Source of the DNA: Acidobacteriota bacterium
Lineage (GTDB): Bacteria; Acidobacteriota; UBA4820; DSQY01
NCBI GenBank assembly: GCA_021787565.1
Contig: JAJYLT010000016.1
Location: 9,156-73,155, forward strand
Direction of reading: 5' to 3'
DNA length: 64,000 nucleotides
Shown here: positions 1,475-58,359 of the stretch, piece after piece
Layout of the letters: the number at the start of each line of letters is the position of its first letter
How positions within the stretch are numbered: position 1 is the first letter of the stretch
Notes under the pieces: generated by a model
The model's database searches: none
What the model saw: only the letters and a program-made list of their open reading frames with translations
What the model was told of the DNA's origin: nothing
Translations under genes and position numbers: made by a program

Positions 1475-1592
1475 ACCCCAGAGGCACCAAGACACGGAGG
1501 AAGCGCCCCATGATCCTCACGGCAACGGTTCCGGCCTCTTTCGACTCCTCACTCCTCGCTCCTCACTCCTCACTCCAGCGGAGCGCCAGCGC

Positions 1593-4150: not shown

Positions 4151-4594
4151 TCAGGCGCCAAGCAGCTCCTTCAAGCCTTCCACGACCTGCTCAACTTCGG
4201 CAGGTGAGGCCGAGCAGAGCCGGCTTCTGATGCGCTCTGTTGAAAGGGTGCGGACCTGACTGATCTTCACCCAGGAGTGCTTGGGCAACTTGGTGCCGGT
4301 GAGTTCCAGCGTCAAAGGGAATCCCGCTTTCGGCGCCTGGCTGGTAATGGCCACCGCAATGACGGTGCCGGAATGCTCATTGAAGACGTCCTGGCTGAGG
4401 TCATACCAGCGCACAACGCAAGCTCTCTTGGCGCCTGACGCCCCGCGTTCAACGGCCGGCCAACCACCCGTGATCCCACACCGACCCCACCAGCCCGGAC
4501 CACTGGCCGCCCCAGACGGCTGGGACCCAAATTCCGCGATGGAATTGCACTCGTAGGAGCGCCGCCCCCGGCGCGACGGACCGTACGCGGGCAC
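4151..4594 (-). pseudogene. MazF/PemK-family mRNA-interferase toxin remnant. The 5' end is replaced by MITE copy 1, the N-terminal motif is degenerate, and no antitoxin gene is left.
   Basis: The C-terminal ~100 aa (FNEHSGTVIAVAITSQ...GTKLPKHSWVKISQVRTLSTERI...) match MazF/PemK. The first 23 codons ([23 protein letters not shown]) are repeat-derived and identical in every MITE copy. Only 131 bp remain upstream, too little for a mazE. Confidence 0.45.
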
Positions 4595-4675
4595 CGCATC
4601 CTGGTCGCAGGGTCACCCGGTTCGCGGCGAGGCGCCGCTCCTACGCAGGCGTTGAGCCGCTATCGCGGAATTGGG
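4524..4675 (+). repeat. MITE-like repeat copy 1. It is ~150 bp, has AATTCCGCGAT terminal inverted repeats, and carries an internal long hairpin.
   Basis: Near-identical sequence recurs at 15122-15274, 31570-31720, 38371-38524, 44668-44816 and 58516-58665. The 11-bp TIRs are perfect. An internal inverted repeat pairs CGTAGGAGCGCCGCC with GGCGCCGCTCCTACG. Confidence 0.8.
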
Positions 4676-4806
4676 CTGGGAAGGGGTTCTTTCCTTCCTC
4701 ACTTCCTCACTTTGTCGCGCTCTGGAGAGCGCTCCTACGGTGGCAAACGGGCGCGCCCCCTTTCCTGTCCTCGAAGGCCTCCCCCCGTCCTACTCACCTA
4801 TCCACC

Positions 4807-10329: not shown

Positions 10330-10828
10330 CGGTCCTCCAGGTGGCGGTCGCCGAGGGGCACCCCGCAAGAGCGGGCGCTGCCGGCGGAGCGGCTACTGTA
10401 CCAGCTTGGGCCTCCCGGGTGAAGACCGGGGGGAGTAAGTGCGGGCCGCCGGGTCCTGCCGAAGGAGTAGCGAGGGGTTCATGCCTGTCCAAAACATGCC
10501 GCCCTGGCGGCTCCGACCCACCACGGGTGCGCCGGCGGCGACGGACCTCCTGCTTCGTCAGCCTTCGGCGTCCGCATCCTCAGCGTACAGGGAGTACGCT
10601 TGCGGTGCTGCCACCTCGGCTTCCTCCCATGAGGCCCATCGGCGCCGGGCCGCGCCTTCCTCCGCTTCGCTGCGGAAGGCAAACCCTCAAGTGCGTGCTG
10701 AAATAATCTTGGACAGCCATGAGGGGGGTTATACTGTCTCTCGCCTGCAGATTTTTGCGTCTTACGTCTCGCGCTTCGCGTCTTGCGTTTTTCGCCGCCC
10801 GCACCGCGCCTCTCATCCAGACCCTGCT

Positions 10829-26938: not shown

Positions 26939-27352
26939 GCTTAAACCTCCTTGGCCGCAAGCGCCCCTGCCACCGGAGCATCCTCTCCGCCGGTCCCGCC
27001 GCAGCACTCCCCTTTTCCACCTTCCCGGCCGTTCTGTCAAATGGGGGCACAACTCCACGATGCCCCGGGTATGACTGGCACCATCCGAGTGGCGCCTTGG
27101 CCTTTCGGACGAGGATGGCCTAGGCGGTTCCTACAGAACGGAGATACCTCGGAGGGGCTTTCCGGGCAAGAGCACTCATCGGTCCAAGGGAGAAGGTTGG
27201 CATGGGCATGGGGAGAGCTACCTGGTTCAGCGTCACGGCCTCGTCGGCCGTGACGGACCCTCCTTTTCGATGGGAAGCGGGCGGGGAGCCGCCGGGCGAA
27301 GGCCGGGCGGCTCCCCTTGGGAGGAAAGGGAGGAGGGGAGGAACGGTGGTGC

Positions 27353-44832: not shown

Positions 44833-47800
44833 CTACGCCGCCCCCTCGGCGGTGGCCTCCTCTCGCACTGGCTTGGGCACGACGACGCCGCGGATGGCCC
44901 AGGCGCGGGAGACGGCGAGCGTGAGGCCGCCGCGGTCGTCCTCCGCCCTGCCCTCCACCACCAGCGGTCTGCCGGACGTGATGAGCTCGCCGAAAGCCTG
45001 GTAGGCGCGGGGGAAGAAGACCAGCTCCGTGAGGCCGGTGGGATCCTCGAGAGTGGCGAAGGCCATGCCCTCCTTCGTCTTGCGGGTGGAGATGCGCTTG
45101 TAGGTGATGACTTGGCCCCACACGCGCGCCGTCTCCCCCGCCTTCACGGCCAGGCTCATCGCGTGCGTGTAGCCCCGCCCCGCCGCCCACTCCAGCAGAG
45201 GCGTCAGCGGATGCGCGGTCGTCGCGTAACCGAGAGTGCGCACTTCACCGGCAAGGGTCTCGGCTAGGGAGAGGGATGTTGAGTCGGCGTGAATCAGAGA
45301 GCCATGGAAACCCAGGGAAGAAACTCTTCTCTCGCCGCGTCTCTGGCTCTCTGGTTCCCTGTTTCTCATCGTGCTGACGCCAGCCTCACCAGACCGCAAC
45401 AGGCCCAACAATACGCCTCGATCGAACCCGAAGTCATCGCACGCTCCCGCGCGGACGAGGACCTCCACTTCCGCGAGGGTGAAGCGGCGGCGCAGGCGGG
45501 AGCAGAGGTCGGCGAAGGAGCGGTAGGGCCCCTCGCCGCGTTCCTCGAAGAGCGCGTCCAGGGCCGAGGGCCGAAGGCCGCGCAGGGTGAAGAAGCCGCA
45601 GCGCAGCAGTCTCCCCTTCCCCGCGAAGTCGCTGCCTGAGGCGTTCACGTCGGGCGGCAGGATCTCCATTCCCCAGCGCCGCGCCTCCTCCACGTAGGCC
45701 GCCGTGCCGTAGAAGCCGCCCTGGTTGTTCACGAGCGCCGCGAAGAACTCGGCGGGGTGGTGGGCCTTGAGGTAGGCCACCTGGTAGGAGAGCTGGGCGA
45801 AGGAGGCGCTGTGGGCCTTGCAGAAGGCGTAGCCCGCGAAGGACTTGATCTGCGCCCAGAGCTGGGCCAGCACGAGAGCGCCGATGCCCCGCTCGCGGCC
45901 CTTCTCGAAGAAGGAGCCCGTGAGCGACTCCATCTCGGCGTGACTCCGGTACTTGCCGCTCATGGTCCGGCGCAGCGAGTCCGCCTCGGCCAGGGAGAGC
46001 CCCACGAACTCGTGGGCCACGCGGATCACGTCCTCCTGGTAGACCATGACGCCGAAGGTTTCCCTGAGGATGGGTTCCAGTTCCGGCGCGGCGTACTGTG
46101 CGCTCTCTTCGCCCAGCCGGCGCTTCACGTAGGCCTCCATCATGCCCGACTCAGAAACGCCGGGCCGGATGATGGAGGAGACCGCCGTCAGGTCCGGGAA
46201 GGTGCGCGTCTTGAGGCGCTGGAGCAGCAGGCGCATGCCCGGCGACTCGATGTAGAAGCAGCCCATGCTGCGGCCCTGTGAGATGACGGCGTTGGTCTCC
46301 GGATCATCGTAGGTCCGCTCCGGCGGGAAGATGGGCGGCGCCTGGCCCGTGCGGTCCTTCACCGCCGCCACCGCGTCCACGAGGACGCCGAGAGACCGGT
46401 TGCCCAGTAGGTCGATCTTCACCAGGCCCAGCTCCTCCACGTCAACCATGTCGCACTGCGTGATGGCCACGCCCTTGGCGGCGCGTTCCAGGGACAGCCG
46501 GCGCGTGAGCGGGACCGGCGAGACCACCACGCCGCCGCAGTGCACCGAGAGGTGGCGCGGGAAGCCGTCGATCCAGCGCGCCACCTCCAGCAGGTCCTGC
46601 CACGGCCGCTCCTTGAGGGGCGCCCGGCGTGACTCGGGCCTCGCCGCCAGAGCCTCTGTGAAGTGCTCGAAGGAGGTGTGCGGGATGGCGCGGGCGATGA
46701 CGCCGATCTCCTCCTCGGGCACGCTCAGGGCCTTGCCCACCTCCCTAAAGCCCGAGCGCGCGGAGAAGGTGTTGTGCGTGGCGATCATGCAGACGTTCTC
46801 GTCGCCGTAGGTGTCGTAGACGTGCCGGATGACGTGGTCGCGCTCGCGCCAGGAGAAGTCCAGGTCGATGTCGGGCGGGTTCCTGCGGCCGGGGTTCAGG
46901 AAGCGCTCGAAGTAGAGGCCCTCGGCCACCGGGTCCACGTGGGTCATGAAGAGGCAGTAGGAGACGAGGCTCGAGGCGCCCGAGCCGCGGCCGATATTGG
47001 GGATGCCCTGGTCGCGGGCGAAGCGGGCGATGTCCTCCACCACCAGGAAGTAGCCCGCGAAGCCCAGGCGCACGATGACCTCCAGCTCCCGCTCCAGCCG
47101 TTCGATGTACGCCATGGAGACGTTGCGCACCCGCCGAGCCAGGCCCGCGTAGGCCAGGGCGCGCAGCTTGCCCGCCTCGGTCTCGCCCGCGGGGATGGGC
47201 GGATGGGGCAGGAGCCAGTCGCCCAGCGGCAGTGTAAGGTCACAGGAGGCCGCCAGCTCCCCCGCCGCGTCCAGCGCCGTGGCGCGGGCGCCCCCGCCCG
47301 CGAACCGCCGCTCCGCCTCCTCCGGTGGAAGCAGGTACTCCCCCGGCCCCGCCTCGGGCCGCAGGTGTTTCGCCGCCCGCAGGACCCGGTGGATGGCGTA
47401 CCCCGAGGGACCCGGGAAGAAGGCCGGCGGCGCGGCGATGCAGGGCAGCTTGAGCCAATCCGCCACGGCACGGGCGTCCGCGTCGGCTTTGGAGTCACCC
47501 GAGAGGCGCGCGAAGAGGCCCCCTTCCCCACCGCCCGCTCCCGGAGGACTTCTCGCTCCCGCCTTCTTGAGCGCGTAGAGCAGGGGCACGTCTGACGCCA
47601 CGAGCGCTACGTGGCCTCCTTCCGTGGCCGCCGCGCACTCCCTCACCCGGTCGAAGCGGTCCGGATCGAGGTTGCGGCGCGTGATGAGGCGGCAGAGACG
47701 GGAGTAGCCCTCGCTGTCCCGTGCAAAGGCAAAAAGAGAGGCCCTTGCGCGGGGAGCTGGAGAGCTGGAGATCTGGAGATCTGAAGAAGAAGGAAGATGC

Positions 47801-48168
47801 CTTGAAGGAGCAAGTTCCCCTGATTGCTCCCTTTTGCCAGATGGGCCGTTCCACGGCTCTTTTCTCCCCAGTTCGCCAGTTCGCCAGCTCTCCAGCTCGC
47901 TCTTTTCCGCCCCCGCGGCTCGCCAGCTCCTCAGCTCCCCAGCTCGCTCTCTATAACCGCCTCCCGTGATCTCCGCCCCCAGAACCGGCTTAATACCCGC
48001 CGCCCTAGCCGCCTTATAGAACCGCACCGCGGCGTAGAGCCCGTCGCGGTCGCAGAGGCCCGCGGCGGGATAGCCCAACTCGGCGCACGCCGCCGCCAGC
48101 GTCTCGGGTAGCATGGCCCCGGAGTAGAACGTGAAAGCGGTCCGGTTGACGAGCGGCACGAACGGCAT
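44833..48168 (-). CDS. dnaE2: Error-prone DNA polymerase III alpha subunit DnaE2 (ImuC), carrying a ~65-aa in-frame low-complexity insertion in the N-terminal PHP domain.
   Basis: 1111 aa. PHP, polymerase core, (HhH)2 and OB-fold regions are recognisable (GYFLVVEDIARFARDQGI; DIDLDF; CGGVVVSP; FAGYAFCKAHSASFAQLSYQ). Residues ~67-145 (GGGYRERAGELRSWRAAGAEKSELESWRTGELGRKEPWNGPSGKREQSGELAPSRHLPSSSDLQISSSPAPRARAS) are inserted between GAEIT and LFAFARDSEGY. Confidence 0.85.
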   Translation of the reverse strand: MPFVPLVNRTAFTFYSGAMLPETLAAACAELGYPAAGLCDRDGLYAAVRFYKAARAAGIKPVLGAEITGGGYRERAGELRSWRAAGAEKSELESWRTGELGRKEPWNGPSGKREQSGELAPSRHLPSSSDLQISSSPAPRARASLFAFARDSEGYSRLCRLITRRNLDPDRFDRVRECAAATEGGHVALVASDVPLLYALKKAGARSPPGAGGGEGGLFARLSGDSKADADARAVADWLKLPCIAAPPAFFPGPSGYAIHRVLRAAKHLRPEAGPGEYLLPPEEAERRFAGGGARATALDAAGELAASCDLTLPLGDWLLPHPPIPAGETEAGKLRALAYAGLARRVRNVSMAYIERLERELEVIVRLGFAGYFLVVEDIARFARDQGIPNIGRGSGASSLVSYCLFMTHVDPVAEGLYFERFLNPGRRNPPDIDLDFSWRERDHVIRHVYDTYGDENVCMIATHNTFSARSGFREVGKALSVPEEEIGVIARAIPHTSFEHFTEALAARPESRRAPLKERPWQDLLEVARWIDGFPRHLSVHCGGVVVSPVPLTRRLSLERAAKGVAITQCDMVDVEELGLVKIDLLGNRSLGVLVDAVAAVKDRTGQAPPIFPPERTYDDPETNAVISQGRSMGCFYIESPGMRLLLQRLKTRTFPDLTAVSSIIRPGVSESGMMEAYVKRRLGEESAQYAAPELEPILRETFGVMVYQEDVIRVAHEFVGLSLAEADSLRRTMSGKYRSHAEMESLTGSFFEKGRERGIGALVLAQLWAQIKSFAGYAFCKAHSASFAQLSYQVAYLKAHHPAEFFAALVNNQGGFYGTAAYVEEARRWGMEILPPDVNASGSDFAGKGRLLRCGFFTLRGLRPSALDALFEERGEGPYRSFADLCSRLRRRFTLAEVEVLVRAGACDDFGFDRGVLLGLLRSGEAGVSTMRNREPESQRRGERRVSSLGFHGSLIHADSTSLSLAETLAGEVRTLGYATTAHPLTPLLEWAAGRGYTHAMSLAVKAGETARVWGQVITYKRISTRKTKEGMAFATLEDPTGLTELVFFPRAYQAFGELITSGRPLVVEGRAEDDRGGLTLAVSRAWAIRGVVVPKPVREEATAEGAA
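47735..47935. repeat. Inverted-repeat, lower-GC insertion (~200 bp) lying in frame inside dnaE2. The left arm GGAGCTGGAGAGCTGGAGATCTGGAGATCTGA is complementary to the right arm CCAGTTCGCCAGTTCGCCAGCTCTCCAGCTCGC.
   Basis: Read directly from the sequence. It contains the short direct repeats CTGGAGAT x2 and CCAGTTCGCCAG x2, and its arms are mutually reverse-complementary. Local GC drops well below the ~70% background. It corresponds exactly to the extra residues in the DnaE2 PHP domain. Confidence 0.45.
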
Positions 48169-48217
48169 GGCGAACCCGAAGGAGGCGGAGACCAGCGACT
48201 ACTATCCGCACCCATAT

Positions 48218-48237
48218 TATAGTCATACATGACTATA
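48218..48237. promoter_or_regulatory. 20-bp palindrome TATAGTCATACATGACTATA, 50-70 bp upstream of the dnaE2 start. Candidate SOS (LexA-like repressor) operator.
   Basis: Perfect 9-bp arms (TATAGTCAT / ATGACTATA) in an AT-rich patch. A near-identical palindrome lies upstream of the LexA-like gene at 52768-52787. Confidence 0.45.
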
Positions 48238-48419
48238 CATTCAAGAGAAAAAGAGGCGGGAGAAATCCACTCCCCCGCCTATAAGGGGTTAGGGCTTCTT
48301 CACGGCCGAAGCCGGCTTTTATGGGTCAAAGCGGCCGCAGGCCGCTCGTCGCGGCCTTCGCCATAGGGCGACCATGGGGATAGAACCACCATGCCCCCCG
48401 CCGGACGGGCACGAAACCT

Positions 48420-52107: not shown

Positions 52108-52155
52108 GGCAGTACCTCAATCACCATCCCACCCCTATAAGATAGGGACAGATTT

Positions 52156-52746
52156 CTATCTTTCCCTCACCCACACGATCTTGTAGGCGAAACGGACATC
52201 CTGCGGCTCGACGACCACCGGCGGATAGAGGGGGTTCACCGATTCGAGGATGATCCGCCCGCCCGCCTCCCGGTAGCGCTTCACGTACTTCTCGCCGGTC
52301 ATGAGGCCTATCACGGCGTAGTCGCCGCTGACGGGCCTCTTGCGCGTGTCCACCATGACCACCTGGCCGTCCTCGTACTTGGGCACCATGCTGTCCCCCG
52401 CCACCTCCACGCCGAAGCCGTTGGGGTCCGTGAACTGCGGCGGGCGGGGCAGGAAGTACATGCCGCCGCCCGCGGGGTAGCCCTGGTCGGTGAACTCCAC
52501 CGCCTCCCCCGCGGAGGCGAAGGCCACTACCGGCACCTCCTCGGCCAGGGAGTTCTCCTGGGTGATCATGGAGAGGGGCACCTCCATGGCTTCGGCGATG
52601 GCTTCCAGGGAGCGGAGCGAGGGGGTGATGCGCCCCTTCTCGATGCGCGCGTAGTTCGGGGGGCTCCATCCCAGGCGCCGCGCCACCTCCGCCTGGGTCA
52701 ACCCGAGAGACTTCCGGACCGATACGAGCTTCTTCGCAAAATCCAT
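52156..52746 (-). CDS. LexA-like transcriptional repressor with an XRE-type HTH N-terminus and an S24 self-cleaving peptidase C-terminus.
   Basis: 197 aa from MDFAKKLVSVRKSLGLTQAEVARRLGWSPPNYARIEKG (HTH_XRE). C-terminal S24 domain with GDSM (Ser nucleophile) and GEKYVKRY (Lys). Its own upstream region carries the same palindrome as dnaE2. Confidence 0.75.
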   Translation of the reverse strand: MDFAKKLVSVRKSLGLTQAEVARRLGWSPPNYARIEKGRITPSLRSLEAIAEAMEVPLSMITQENSLAEEVPVVAFASAGEAVEFTDQGYPAGGGMYFLPRPPQFTDPNGFGVEVAGDSMVPKYEDGQVVMVDTRKRPVSGDYAVIGLMTGEKYVKRYREAGGRIILESVNPLYPPVVVEPQDVRFAYKIVWVRER

Positions 52747-52767: not shown

Positions 52768-52787
52768 AATAGTCAGGCATGACCATA
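52768..52787. promoter_or_regulatory. Imperfect palindrome AATAGTCAGGCATGACCATA, 22-41 bp upstream of the LexA-like start. Candidate autoregulatory operator.
   Basis: Matches the dnaE2 palindrome at 16/20 positions (consensus TATAGTCAT-N2-ATGACTATA) and sits in a local AT-rich patch (ACCATAATAATAGTCAGGCATGACCATAAAG). Confidence 0.45.
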
Positions 52788-54842: not shown

Positions 54843-54930
54843 CTTGCGCCTCCGTGTCGGAGCCGGTAAGCCGCCTCTTTCCGGTCTCTCCTCATCATCT
54901 CCTCATCTCCTCATCTCGGCACCCCATCCC

Positions 54931-57900
54931 TCACACGCCAAAGTACTTCGCCTGCGGGTGGTGCACCACCACCGCGGAGACCGAGGCTTCCGGCTCCATC
55001 ATGAAGCCCTCCGTGAGCTCCACCCCAATCCTCTCGGGCCCGAGCAACTCGAACAGGCGCGCCTGGAGCGAGAGGTCCGGGCAGGCGGGATAACCGAAGC
55101 TGTACCGCTTCCCCCGGTAGCGCGCCTGGAAGCGGTCCATCATGGTCATCTCCGGCGGATCGGGGAAACCCCACCGCTCGCGGATCTTGCCATGGAGCCA
55201 CTCGGCCGTCGCCTCCGCCAGCTCCAGCGCCAGCGCCTGGAGGGCGTGGCACCTCAGGAAGCTTCCCTCCCGCTTGAGCCCCTCCACCCGATCGCGGATG
55301 CCCTCCCCGGCCGTCGTGACGAAGAGGGCCACCGAGTCGCCTCCGCCCTCCGAAACCGGCCGGATGAAGTCGGCGATGCACTCCCGCTCGCCGCCGCGCT
55401 GCCGGGGGAAGGCGAAGGACGCCGGGGGACGGCCCCGCGCGAAGAGGCGGAGGTCGTTTCCGTCGGATTCGGCGGCGAAGAAGCGATAGATCGCCCTCAG
55501 CCTGATCCAGCCGGAGTCCCGGAGCCCCTCCATCAGCGATGCCAGCTCGACGGCCCGGGGATCGCCCTCTTCCCTGAGCCTGGCGAAGCTGCCGCGGAGG
55601 CCGAGGTGCTTGCCGTAGAGCATCTGGGGATTGAGGTAGGGCCACACTTCCGCGACGGAAGGCTCCAGAATGTGCTCCGACTCATCCGGAGGAGGCAGAG
55701 CCGGAAGGAGTTCGATCCGTGGGCTCCTCACGGCGGGGACATCCCACTCCTCGGGCACGGCCCGCGGGGGCACCTGGCCCGCCGTGCGGCGCCTCTCCTC
55801 GATCTCGGCCCGCGCCGCGTCGGCCCGCTCCGGGTCGGTCAGGCGGTTCAGCAGATCCAGCCCGGTCATGGCGTCCTTGGCGTAGGCCACGAATCCTCCA
55901 TAGGCGGGAGCGATCTTCAGGTCGGTGAACTTCTCCGTCAGGGCAGCCCCGCCCACGAGCAGCAACGGGGCGACCCCGGCCGCCGTAAGGTCCTCGGCCG
56001 TGGTCACCATCTGAAACGCGCTCCTGACGAGGAGGCCCGAGAGGCCGATGGCATCGGGCTCGTGCTCGCGAAAGGCCCGGACGAGCGTCTCCGGCAGCAC
56101 CTTGATCCCCAGGTTCACCACACGGTAGCCGTTGTTGCTGAAGATGATGTCCACGAGATTCTTTCCGATGTCGTGGACGTCGCCCTTCACGGTGGCCAGG
56201 AGGACGGTGCCCCGCAGGGCGTCGGCGCGCCGCTCCATCTTCGCCTCCAGCCTGGAGACGGCGGCCTTCATCACCTCCGCCGACTGGAGCACCTCGGCCA
56301 CGATGAGCTGGTTGGCGGCGAAGAGCCGGCCCACCTCGGCCATGCCCGCCATGAGGGGGCCGTTGATGATCGCAAGAGGCTGCATCCCTTGCGCGAGCAG
56401 TTCGTCCAGGTCCTCCGCCAAGCCCTGCTTGGTGCCCTCGATGATGCACCGAGGAAGCCGCTCCGCCGCCGTTCCCGCTCTCTTCCGAGAGGGGGCCGTG
56501 GTTCCGCCCCGCCCCTTGAAGTAGGCCGAGAAGGCTCCCACCGGATCCCCTCCGCGGCGGAAAAGAAGGTTCTCCGCCAGGGCGCGCTCCTCCTCCGGAA
56601 TGGTGGGATAGCGACGGATCTTCTCGCTGTTCACGATGGCCAGATCGAGGCCGGCCAGCGTGCAGTGGTAGAGGAAGACCGAGTTCAAGACCTCCCTCCC
56701 TACGGGCGGCAGACCGAAGCTGACGTTCGAGATGCCGAGGATGGACTTGCTGTCGGGGAACTCCGCCTTGATGAGCCGGAGCCCCTCGATGGTCTCCACG
56801 GCGCTCCCCGCGTAGGCCTCGTCGCCTGTGCCGCAGGGGAAGACCAGGGGGTCGAAGAAGAGATCCTCGGGCGGCATGCCGTATTTTTCCGTGAGCAGGG
56901 AAAAGGCCCGGCGGGCGATGGAGAGCTTTCGCACTCTCGTCACGGCCATGCCCGCCGAAGGGTCCTCGTCGATGGTCCCGACGACGAGGGCCGCCCCGAA
57001 GGATCGGGCCAGGGGGACGACCTTGCGGAAACGCTCCTCCCCGTCCTCGAGATTCACCGAGTTGATCACCGCCTTGCCCTGGCATAGCGACAGGGCCCGC
57101 TCGACCACCCCGGCGTCGGTGGAGTCGATCATGAGCGGGGCCCGCACCATCCGGGAGGCCTTCTCCAGAAAGCCAGTCAGGTCCGAGAGTTCGTCCCGGT
57201 CGGGGTCCTGGAGGCAGACGTCCAGGATCTGGGCGCCGGCCCGCACCTGCTCCCTCGCCAGCTCCGCGGCCCCCTCCGCATCGCCCGCCGCGATGAGGCT
57301 CTTGAATCGCCGGCTGCCCAGTACGTTGGTACGCTCGCCCACCAGGACCGGCCGGTTCTCCTCCTCCACCTCCAGAAAGTCGATGCCCGACAGGAAGGTC
57401 CGGTGGTGCTCGGGCACACGGCGCGGACGAAGGCCCGCCACGGAGTCGGCGAGGGCCCGGATGTGCTCCGCCGTGGTCCCGCAGCAGCCACCCGCCAGGT
57501 TGATCCAGCCCGATTCCGCGAAGCGCGCCAGATGGGCCGCGAACTCGGCCGGAGTGGTGCCGTAGCGGCCGTTCTCGTCGGGCAGGCCGGCGTTGGGGTA
57601 GCAGGAGACCCTCGTCTTCGCGATGGCCGAGAGGCTCCGCAGGTGGCTCGTCATCAATTCCGGCCCCGTGGCGCAGTTGAGGCCCACGGCCAGGAGGGGG
57701 GCGTGCATGACGGAGGCGTAGAGCGCCTCGATGGTCTGTCCGGCCAGCATGGTGCCGGAGGGCTCGATGGTGACCGAGACCATCACGGGCACCTCCAGCC
57801 CGGTCTCCTCCATGGCACTCCGGAGACCGAAGAGGCCCGCCTTCAGGTTGCGCGTGTCCTGGACGGTCTCCAGCACCAGCAGGTCCGCGCCCCCTTCGAG

Positions 57901-58359
57901 GAGGCCGAAGGCCTGGATCCGGTAGTGCTCTCGCATCTGTTCGAAGCTCACGCCGCCCGTCACCGTGATGGAACGGGTCGTTGGGCCCATGGAACCGGCC
58001 ACGAAGCGGGGCTTGGAGGGGGTGGAAAAGGCCGCGCAGGCGGCGCGGGCGATCTGGGCCGCGCGACGGTTGATCTCCATCGCCTTCCCCGCCAGTCCGT
58101 ACTCGGCCAGGACGAGCGGGGTGCCGCCGAAGGTGTCGGTCTCCACGATTTGGGCCCCCGCCCCCAGATAGCTCTCGTGGACGGCCCGAACCACGTCGGG
58201 GCGCGAGAAGACGAGGTGCTCGTTGCACCCCTCCAACTCGGACCCGCCGAAGTCCTTCGCGGTGAGCCCGAAGGCCTGCAGGGCGGTGCCCGTGGCCCCG
58301 TCCATCACGACGACGGCCTCTTGCAGGAGATCCAGGAGTTGCTCGCCCCGGTCGTTCAT
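54931..58359 (-). CDS. metH: Cobalamin-dependent methionine synthase.
   Basis: 1142 aa. Contains the Hcy domain (VMDGATGT), pterin-binding, B12-binding (DVHDIGKN, the GDVHDIG-type motif) and AdoMet-activation domains. Confidence 0.9.
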   Translation of the reverse strand: MNDRGEQLLDLLQEAVVVMDGATGTALQAFGLTAKDFGGSELEGCNEHLVFSRPDVVRAVHESYLGAGAQIVETDTFGGTPLVLAEYGLAGKAMEINRRAAQIARAACAAFSTPSKPRFVAGSMGPTTRSITVTGGVSFEQMREHYRIQAFGLLEGGADLLVLETVQDTRNLKAGLFGLRSAMEETGLEVPVMVSVTIEPSGTMLAGQTIEALYASVMHAPLLAVGLNCATGPELMTSHLRSLSAIAKTRVSCYPNAGLPDENGRYGTTPAEFAAHLARFAESGWINLAGGCCGTTAEHIRALADSVAGLRPRRVPEHHRTFLSGIDFLEVEEENRPVLVGERTNVLGSRRFKSLIAAGDAEGAAELAREQVRAGAQILDVCLQDPDRDELSDLTGFLEKASRMVRAPLMIDSTDAGVVERALSLCQGKAVINSVNLEDGEERFRKVVPLARSFGAALVVGTIDEDPSAGMAVTRVRKLSIARRAFSLLTEKYGMPPEDLFFDPLVFPCGTGDEAYAGSAVETIEGLRLIKAEFPDSKSILGISNVSFGLPPVGREVLNSVFLYHCTLAGLDLAIVNSEKIRRYPTIPEEERALAENLLFRRGGDPVGAFSAYFKGRGGTTAPSRKRAGTAAERLPRCIIEGTKQGLAEDLDELLAQGMQPLAIINGPLMAGMAEVGRLFAANQLIVAEVLQSAEVMKAAVSRLEAKMERRADALRGTVLLATVKGDVHDIGKNLVDIIFSNNGYRVVNLGIKVLPETLVRAFREHEPDAIGLSGLLVRSAFQMVTTAEDLTAAGVAPLLLVGGAALTEKFTDLKIAPAYGGFVAYAKDAMTGLDLLNRLTDPERADAARAEIEERRRTAGQVPPRAVPEEWDVPAVRSPRIELLPALPPPDESEHILEPSVAEVWPYLNPQMLYGKHLGLRGSFARLREEGDPRAVELASLMEGLRDSGWIRLRAIYRFFAAESDGNDLRLFARGRPPASFAFPRQRGGERECIADFIRPVSEGGGDSVALFVTTAGEGIRDRVEGLKREGSFLRCHALQALALELAEATAEWLHGKIRERWGFPDPPEMTMMDRFQARYRGKRYSFGYPACPDLSLQARLFELLGPERIGVELTEGFMMEPEASVSAVVVHHPQAKYFGV

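Follow-up and report, generated by a model that had tools for sequence, protein, structure and literature searches.

Cyanobacterial STRR repeats are tandem arrays of 7–8-nucleotide (nt) units, similar to those that we describe here from a DNA polymerase gene of an Acidobacteriota bacterium. Heptamer-rich "long simple sequence repeats" are abundant and prone to slippage in some genomes, as Mrazek 2007 is cited in PMC4679880, and the spread of such simple-sequence repeats has no evident mechanism (PMC4679880). Two Xanthomonas genomes each contain 70–75 convergent pairs of heptamer arrays, which are capable of forming stem-loops, are located close to stop codons, and seldom occur in coding DNA (PMC4692102). 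Intervening sequences of ribosomal RNA (rRNA) are a further described system; the one in the 23S rRNA of Coxiella burnetii is 428 nt long, carries an S23p open reading frame (ORF), is excised by RNase III, and has tandem GACAGAT heptamers upstream of the ORF, the number of which varies between strains, and the function and origin of intervening sequences are called unclear (PMC4990558). The palindromic elements of Rickettsia, as far as the review PMC10969869 summarizes them, measure ~100–150 bp and lie in frame, translated, in unrelated genes. Here, we analyzed 64,000 nt from contig JAJYLT010000016.1 of an Acidobacteriota assembly (GCA_021787565.1, positions 9,156 to 73,155), referred to below as the window, in which the gene of a DnaE-family DNA polymerase carries a 225-nt insert in its PHP domain. 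On balance, this segment is probably a cargo-less hairpin cassette that resembles an rRNA intervening sequence and is translated as a disordered loop.

The insert, which we call site 1, covers 47740–47964 on the minus strand (codons 69–143) when delimited against 120 homologues. It places 75 residues between GAEIT and SLFAFARD of the window protein, compared with 4–10 residues in most of the 120 homologues. Its GC content is 0.61 versus 0.69 for the gene, and falls to 0.55–0.58 in 100-nt intervals versus about 0.70 around it. The insert has no in-frame stop codon, while each of the other two frames has one. A sequence-only reading of the window had placed an insertion at 47735–47935, so that its limits need to be drawn slightly wider; what it said of extra residues in a normally short loop, of a lower GC content, and of an in-frame insertion bounded by inverted repeats and encoding a low-complexity linker agrees with our results.

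The cassette consists of an 8-bp unit, GAGCTGGN, which Tandem Repeats Finder places in three arrays, two direct and one inverted, around a centre of ~60 nt (Table 1). Direct repeats and reverse-complementary arms had been described in the sequence-only reading and are present: CTGGAGAT occurs twice at 47766–47781, CCAGTTCG(CCAG) occurs twice at 47868–47887, and GGAGCTGGAGAGCTGG (47752–47767) matches the reverse complement of CCAGCTCTCCAGCTCG (47884–47899) at 15 of 16 positions. The three arrays replace the "two halves" of that description. The best inverted pair has 41-nt arms with 78% complementarity, separated by 63 nt, and folds into a long hairpin; it ranks top across the whole window, and its inverted-alignment score stands at z = 12.3 relative to shuffles. 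When up to three mismatches were allowed, the 18-mer GAGCTGGAGAGCTGGAGA gave seven matches, all within the insert, versus 0.17 expected. The head-to-tail 8-nt units exceed chance and two close arrays lie on opposite strands, as is characteristic of simple-sequence arrays. Within the centre, GGAGCAA (47807–47813) pairs with TTGCTCC (47824–47830) in a small internal hairpin, and nothing similar to this centre was found in the sequences compared by alignment or inspection (L085, L095, and hairpins of other array-bearing genomes). The cassette peptide had no match in any other protein among the 5.8 billion searched.

Several other identities were considered for the segment. No Rfam family reached its gathering score; the best candidate was a plant microRNA hairpin with 31 bits versus 80, and this and a small nucleolar RNA match below threshold reflect a chance likeness to the hairpin shape. 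An intein, an intron, or a translational bypass was set aside, since conserved blocks are lacking, the insert is too short, and all alleles are in frame and free of stops.

The position of the insert in the protein was evaluated with an AlphaFold2 model of residues 1–340, based on an 85-sequence alignment. The model has a mean predicted local distance difference test score (pLDDT) of 83.8 and a confident PHP fold, in which the insert lies between strands 60–66 and 145–149, with pLDDT of 44–57 inside it and above 90 on both sides. According to this model, the insert is probably a disordered surface-loop insertion, the placement that the sequence-only reading had proposed for checking. The metal-binding histidines found at the N-terminus of active PHP domains are replaced by P5 and R9, and the PHP domain of the polymerase is predicted to be catalytically degenerate.

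The same loop was compared in eight orthologues, for which DNA was available from nine loci; L005 was the sole close locus among at least 80 loci obtained from a metagenome scan with the clade alignment. Orthologues at 63–84% identity have 6–58 residues at this loop, and the sequences of these residues are unrelated. A hairpin with tandem 7–8-nt arms is present at the site-1 loop in seven of the eight orthologues (L001–L004, L087, L088, and L210), each pair of arms being listed in Table 1. Inverted-repeat scores of L001–L004, L087, and L088 range from z = 4.6 to 13.7, with no shuffle attaining the observed value, and the L210 cassette was recognized from its fold alone (−58.3 kcal/mol). Since the unit sequences differ and the arms nevertheless pair, complementarity is kept while the unit changes. 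The hairpin is absent from P0018 and P0019. The insertion is thus not the one-off event that had been proposed, as relatives carry hairpins with other units and lengths at the same loop; the alignment to orthologues shows neither a private insertion nor a conserved domain feature.

A second cassette of the same kind, overlooked in the sequence-only reading, is present at 45277–45405 of the same gene (site 2). Its arms are 8-nt arrays, GAAACAGG/GAACCAGA/GAGCCAGA on one side and CCCTGG..GGCTCTCTG on the other. In relatives, this region varies or has been swapped, and several site-2 cassettes have arrays with no complementary partner.

Comparison of close alleles revealed how quickly these cassettes change. 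Among alleles at least 90% identical, site 2 differs most and the site-1 peptides are nearly unchanged. For example, the site-2 cassettes of P0002 and P0123 are wholly different, and P0131 has two tandem site-2 modules versus one in P0004; P0005 and P0132, as well as P0011 and P0138, likewise differ at site 2. The closest relative of the window, L085 (~89–92% DNA identity), has GAGCTGGG and TCCTCAC arrays at site 2 instead of those of the window; the L085 contig ends inside the gene and lacks its 5′ end, and this comparison covers site 2. Modules are also shared between the two sites: L210 carries a site-2-type module at site 1, and the 5′ half of the window site-1 cassette, which comprises an array, a purine-rich spacer, and a further array, has ~80% identity with the 5′ half of the L085 site-2 cassette as we read their alignment. 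As a separate observation, the ACTCCTC unit of a single array elsewhere in the window (1544–1576) recurs as TCCTCAC in the L085 site-2 cassette. Both whole-cassette replacement and in-place change seem to occur in this gene.

At the nucleotide level, the cassettes do not resemble the gene around them. GC at third codon positions (GC3) is 0.91 in the gene core and 0.34–0.74 in the cassettes (0.55 at site 1), with no codon periodicity. The 17 cassettes examined have no in-frame stop, compared with 10 and eight stops in the other two frames. This combination indicates that the frame has been kept open by selection, while the sequence has not been shaped as coding DNA. Sense and antisense folds of the cassettes are about equally stable and no bias to the sense strand was found, which favours complementarity at the DNA level over a strand-specific RNA structure.

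We scanned 185,579 species genomes for GAGCTGGNGAGCTGGNGANCTGG and obtained at least 120 matches; those listed do not include the contig of the window. Among the matches listed, GAGCTGG arrays occur on many contigs (at least five) of single genomes of Acidobacteriota, Gemmatimonadota, and cyanobacteria. These include the Acidobacteriota genome FAS170219_bin_60, with arrays in L095, L103, L113, L140, and L155, as well as the Acidobacteriota genome MFD04850, three Gemmatimonadota genomes, and the Cyanobacteriota genome MAG099. The listed arrays typically begin at or just past a stop codon and often form inverted pairs that enclose unrelated centres; for 80 of 122, no open frame extends across the array and 150 nt to either side of it, the gene calls in these loci being crude (open frames and GC3 only). 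Since the arrays flank unrelated centres within one genome, the array and not the whole element is the repeated unit. The loci of the relatives also hold 7–8-nt arrays between genes.

These arrays are similar to the heptamer repeats of Xanthomonas and Nostoc (PMC4692102) in having 7–8-nt units, ~3–5 copies, and opposite-strand pairs capable of forming stem-loops, and the Nostoc-type unit (GGGGATT, GGGATTT) is that of relatives L001–L003. TAACTGA repeats (PMC4679880) are simple-sequence arrays of further likeness. In contrast to GGGNATC or GGGGAYT repeats, the window unit is an octamer, GAGCTGGN, of weak G-quadruplex potential. Also, the Xanthomonas and Nostoc heptamers are under-represented in coding DNA, whereas the pairs in the polymerase lie in frame, at two loops, and at positions conserved across the clade. 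The palindromic elements of Rickettsia (Ogata 2000, as summarized in PMC10969869) are likewise palindromic, in frame in an ORF, and at a position compatible with the fold; as that summary presents them, they have a conserved consensus and peptide in many copies, whereas here the architecture recurs and the sequence does not.

Genes of the PF05635 family (23S_rRNA_IVP, S23p, Avd-like) are also associated with such arrays. A PF05635 gene lies between the LexA-like gene and the DUF72 gene in L001, L004, and L210, and is absent from this spot in the window, L002, and L003. In each of the three loci that have it, inverted tandem arrays stand on both sides of the gene, and the arrays in L001 (AAACAGGG / CCCTGTTT) share a unit family with the site-2 cassette of the L001 polymerase gene. 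When positions 52108–52155 of the window were compared with L001 (1770–2345) and L004 (935–1530), the empty sites were found to keep a few bases like the outer arm ends, which could be a footprint.

A hidden Markov model (HMM) made from the L001, L004, and L210 genes found further PF05635 genes in the fetched loci, which Pfam confirmed. The gene in L142 (Gemmatimonadaceae) is flanked by GAGCTGGT x11 and CACCAGCT x5, the 7-nt core of the window cassette, and the genes in L055, L035, and L019 also have flanking arrays, with the unit GACAGAC in L055. In an independent sample from cyanobacterial plasmids, five of six PF05635 genes are flanked by inverted heptamer arrays, and one pair, GGGAGCA / CCCCTGC, is the unit of the L087 polymerase cassette. 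Altogether, the sample comprised 17 genes, including 11 that were chosen regardless of arrays; eight of the 11 have significant inverted arrays (z = 4–14) and 10 have some array. The array-bracketed genes span Acidobacteriota, Gemmatimonadota, Bacteroidota, and cyanobacterial plasmids, and we found no paper that generalizes the association of PF05635 with inverted arrays. The layout that links them to the window cassette is 5′ arrays, a purine-rich run, a centre or cargo, a pyrimidine run, and 3′ arrays. In distant lineages, a PF05635 gene lies 200–600 nt directly upstream of a dnaE-family homologue (L019 2436–2795, L029 2411–2779, and L055 2308–2697); these positions suggest that the family and the polymerase locus are recurrently associated.

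In the reading as a cargo-less cassette, the stem is formed by inverted tandem 8-bp units around a short unique centre, within a permissive loop of the PHP domain. The cassette would belong to a class of array-stem hairpins that are scattered through genomes, mostly between genes, and some members of the class would carry a PF05635 gene in the loop, as in 23S rRNA intervening sequences. The class would have colonized two loops of the polymerase gene across this Acidobacteriota clade. At site 1, the insert would survive because it contains no stop codon and its length is divisible by three, so that it would be translated into a disordered linker. The cassettes would turn over fast by replacement of whole modules and by gain and loss of units, presumably through slippage of the arrays together with copying of modules, for which fold-back, ectopic template switching, or a mobility function could be responsible. 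We infer that the cassette is translated and that such cassettes may be relatives of intervening-sequence elements rather than mere look-alikes.

The likeness to rRNA intervening sequences lies in inserted ends that pair into an extended stem, in the location inside an essential conserved gene, in a size of 100–750 nt, and in the tandem heptamers found in the stem region of the Coxiella sequence. In addition, the PF05635 gene, which is the optional loop cargo of intervening sequences, is bracketed by similar inverted arrays in the relatives. There are also differences: the host is a protein-coding gene and not helix 25 or 45 of 23S rRNA, the window cassette has no ORF, and its stems are almost wholly tandem arrays. 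The cassette would be tolerated by staying in frame, and not by RNase III excision.

A wider generalization is doubtful in our view, namely that 7–8-nt arrays such as STRR, long simple-sequence repeats, GGGNATC, and TAACTGA are the stems or footprints of one widespread hairpin class related to intervening sequences, and not mere products of slippage. Full members of this class would have a PF05635 gene and would enter rRNA helices, intergenic 3′ ends, and protein loops, and the polymerase gene would be a recurrent target for module exchange.

Several results weigh against a cassette of this kind. No target-site duplication was found, as no direct repeat brackets 47740–47964; no second copy of the site-1 cassette is present in the 64-kb window; and neither a mobility function nor a conserved centre was found for the cassettes. 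The window also has no PF05635 gene, and an HMM search of six-frame translations of the 17 cassettes gave no PF05635 remnant (best E = 0.3). As the window cassette has no such remnant, its link to intervening sequences is an architectural one, and the resemblance would be architectural only. In L086/L005, the site-1 hairpin has decayed, which means that it is not strictly required. Fold-energy z-scores relative to dinucleotide shuffles are modest, lying between −0.8 and −5.9 in seven cassettes and at +1.06 in L086; this is a weak test because the G-rich and C-rich halves pair anyway, and the inverted-alignment score relative to shuffles was used in its place. Finally, P0002, P0003, P0004, P0008, P0010, and P0011 have GGGATT-type cassettes with homologous ends (GT[AV][FL]GI... 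/ ...IPNP[QK]S), which indicate vertical descent with divergence. These six cassettes would fit slippage evolution in place as well as mobility.

Such evolution in place is a serious rival explanation, and we consider it possible, at a good deal less than even chances. It holds that no mobile element is involved: replication slippage would have built a short array in a permissive loop, an inverted copy of it would have arisen by fold-back (intrastrand template switching), and further slippage with quasi-palindrome correction would renew both the units and their complementarity. Similar units elsewhere would, with the same tentative standing, reflect a genome-wide mutational or structural preference. 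The arms are indeed simple-sequence arrays, and the slipped-strand expansion that the sequence-only reading named as an alternative is probably part of the story. The homologous cassette ends in the six orthologues, the equal stability of sense and antisense folds that DNA-level complementarity predicts, and the lack of a detected target-site duplication or transposase also agree with it, as does the abundance of slippage-prone heptamer arrays reported for some genomes (Mrazek 2007 as cited in PMC4679880; PMC4692102). However, alleles at least 90% identical differ by replacement of whole cassettes, non-repetitive parts included, and the same composite module occupies different sites in two genomes (site 1 versus site 2). 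Unit families also recur across phyla and in the stems that flank PF05635 genes, and both hairpin cassettes of the 64-kb window lie in one gene. These observations weigh against change in place alone.

The identity of the host gene was also evaluated. The polymerase passes one NCBIfam cut-off only, that of the superfamily model TIGR00594, and scores below the cut-offs of NF004226 (DnaE; 656 versus 1002 bits) and NF004225 (error-prone DnaE2; 576 versus 939 bits). There is no imuA or imuB beside the gene; around it are genes for an S8 peptidase and a sulfatase, a DUF72 gene, and the LexA-like gene. The name dnaE2 used in the sequence-only reading is unproven because both cut-offs are missed and no imuA or imuB is adjacent. 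The protein resembles error-prone DnaE2 (ImuC) in its length of ~1030 aa without the cassettes, in having no PHP metal-binding histidines, and in sharing an operator-like sequence with the LexA-like gene. It differs in its NF004225 score, in the genes around it, and in a repressor that is HTH_3–S24 and not canonical LexA.

The shared sequence is a perfect 16-bp palindrome, TAGTCATGTATGACTA (48220–48235), which fills the spacer between the −35 and −10 elements of the putative polymerase promoter. Its consensus, T[AG]GTCAT-NN-ATGACTA, precedes dnaE in each of the eight orthologue loci and also lies upstream of the HTH_3 + Peptidase_S24 gene in all four loci that include that gene. The palindrome probably serves as operator in a LexA-like regulon to which the polymerase belongs, and its distribution points to possible damage-inducible control of the gene. 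The LexA box of Alphaproteobacterial type, GTTCN7GTTC, is as frequent as expected by chance, with none at the polymerase promoter. One allele of the polymerase gene is broken: P0134, in the cluster of P0008, is a 347-aa fragment on a 50-kb contig that matches polymerase residues 365–650 and then runs out of frame, which suggests that some strains may be able to do without the gene.

Given this putative regulon, the stem early in the coding region could be a selected regulatory RNA that limits a mutagenic polymerase through RNase III cleavage or ribosome slowing; such selection would explain the persistence of a hairpin at this loop despite its drifting sequence. We consider this unlikely. The hairpin is kept with differing sequences in seven of eight orthologues, which amounts to covariation at the level of repeat units, and the stems of intervening sequences are RNase III substrates (PMC4990558). 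On the other hand, fold stability has no strand preference, L086/L005 have lost the hairpin, P0018 and P0019 lack it, some site-2 arrays have no complementary partner, and no Rfam family matched at gathering score.

The sequence-only reading proposed that the segment could be a miniature inverted-repeat transposable element (MITE), that is, a non-autonomous transposon with terminal inverted repeats that landed in frame, and this interpretation now appears improbable. Like a MITE, the segment is small, has inverted termini, has no coding capacity, and is lower in GC than its host gene; same-unit arrays are multi-copy in some genomes, and in-frame palindromic elements are known in Rickettsia genes from what the review PMC10969869 summarizes. 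However, it has no target-site duplication, conserved interior, or identified parent, no other copy occurs in the window, and the peptide of the whole element is unmatched elsewhere. Moreover, the array-type termini change their unit between genomes, arrays elsewhere surround unrelated centres, and orthologues have different cassettes at the same codons.

A contingency (phase-variation) switch, in which one 7- or 8-bp unit gained or lost would shift the frame and turn the polymerase off or on, is more improbable still. The units have lengths that are not divisible by three, arrays lie in the ORF at two sites, and heptamer copy number varies between Coxiella strains (PMC4990558). Yet the arrays are short, with 3–5 units, and all recovered alleles are in frame, including P0121 with its identical cassette, in a protein-based search that misses frameshifted alleles. 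P0134, the only broken allele seen, was ruled out as a frameshift allele at a cassette, since it is broken elsewhere in the gene. These two readings, the regulatory hairpin and the frameshift switch, would be of greater interest than the others, and neither has direct support. Last, an assembly chimera or collapsed repeat, a chimeric join having been suggested in the sequence-only reading, is scarcely credible even though repeats and hairpins are hard to assemble and the L085 contig ends inside the gene, and assembly error at the insert is unlikely given that the exact protein is on five contigs from NCBI, ENA, and Logan assemblies, the gene on ENA contig L209 is identical (3336/3336 bases), a second NCBI assembly (P0121) has one different residue and an identical cassette, the frame is unbroken, and cassettes occupy this place in relatives too.

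Table 1 Coordinates of the polymerase cassettes, the putative operators, and the related arrays and genes (window positions, unless a locus is named)
Feature	Position	Strand	Basis or remark
DnaE-family DNA polymerase gene, 1111 aa, host of both cassettes	44833–48168	−	Pfam: PHP, DNA_pol3_alpha, finger, HHH_6, OB
Site 1, outer 5′ array (sense), GAGCTGGN x3.5	47918–47945	−	Tandem Repeats Finder
Site 1, inner 5′ array (sense), GAGCTGGN / GAACTGGC x4.6, pairs with 3′ array	47864–47900	−	Tandem Repeats Finder, inverted pair, minimum-free-energy fold
Site 1, non-repetitive centre	47798–47857	−	Sequence, fold
Site 1, 3′ array (sense), TCCAGCTC / TCCAGATC x4.2; plus strand reads GAGCTGGA	47754–47787	−	Tandem Repeats Finder
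Site-2 cassette, HHH_6–OB interval, codons ~922–964	45277–45405	−	Fold −51 kcal/mol; inverted-repeat z = 4.9
Promoter-like TTGAAT–17 nt–TATAAT around putative operator	48216–48244	−	Sequence
LexA-like repressor gene (HTH_3 + Peptidase_S24)	52156–52746	−	Pfam; second copy of putative operator at 52770–52785
Palindrome copies in relatives	L001 1140, 3933; L002 1395, 3929; L003 816, 3943; L004 275, 3943		
Site-1 arms in L001			5′ GGGGATT; 3′ AATCCCC
Site-1 arms in L002, L003			5′ GGGATTT; 3′ AAATCCC
Site-1 arms in L004			5′ GGGATTCC-type array; 3′ inverse array
Site-1 arms in L087			5′ GGGAGCA; 3′ GCTCCCC
Site-1 arms in L088			5′ GAATTGC; 3′ GCAATTC
Site-1 arms in L210			5′ GAGNCAGG; 3′ CCCTGGCTC
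Array-bracketed PF05635 genes	L001 1758–2308; L004 935–1515; L210 1–575		
Array-bracketed PF05635 genes	L142 4650–5270; L055 2200–2740; L035 1110–1630		
Array-bracketed PF05635 genes	L211, L212, L214, L215, L216		Plasmid loci
Single array, ACTCCTC x4.7	1544–1576		Apparently intergenic
Single array, CTTCCTCA x2.4	4694–4712		Apparently intergenic
Single array, TTGCGTC x4.9	10755–10788		Apparently intergenic
Single array, GGGAGGAA x2.9	27319–27343		Apparently intergenic
Single array, CTCCTCAT x3.4	54887–54917		Gap between metH (54931–58359, −) and next gene

Elsewhere in the window, a 33-nt inverted repeat was found at 4545–4746, with 73% complementarity and 136 nt between its arms (TTGCACTCGTAGGAGCGCCGCC... 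versus ...GGCGCTCCTACGGTGGCAA). It lies in an apparent intergenic gap with the CTTCCTCA array inside it, and may be the other "MITE" of the sequence-only reading.

For over 25 years, short heptamer and octamer arrays and rRNA intervening sequences have been on record, and for neither is there an agreed origin or mode of spread (PMC4679880, PMC4990558). This locus connects three subjects that are usually treated apart, namely simple-sequence arrays dispersed in genomes, the PF05635 "four helix bundle" genes, and the way in which intervening sequences are built. If the cassettes are inert passengers, the value of the finding is mainly in annotation, as these loops should not be read as domains. 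A conserved polymerase tolerates 26–75 residues of essentially arbitrary peptide at two loops, and the locus offers a test bed for the effects of hairpins on mRNA stability and for the switching-off of a mutagenic polymerase by frameshift. With different hairpin cassettes in one protein loop of close relatives, the polymerase gene represents a natural time series.

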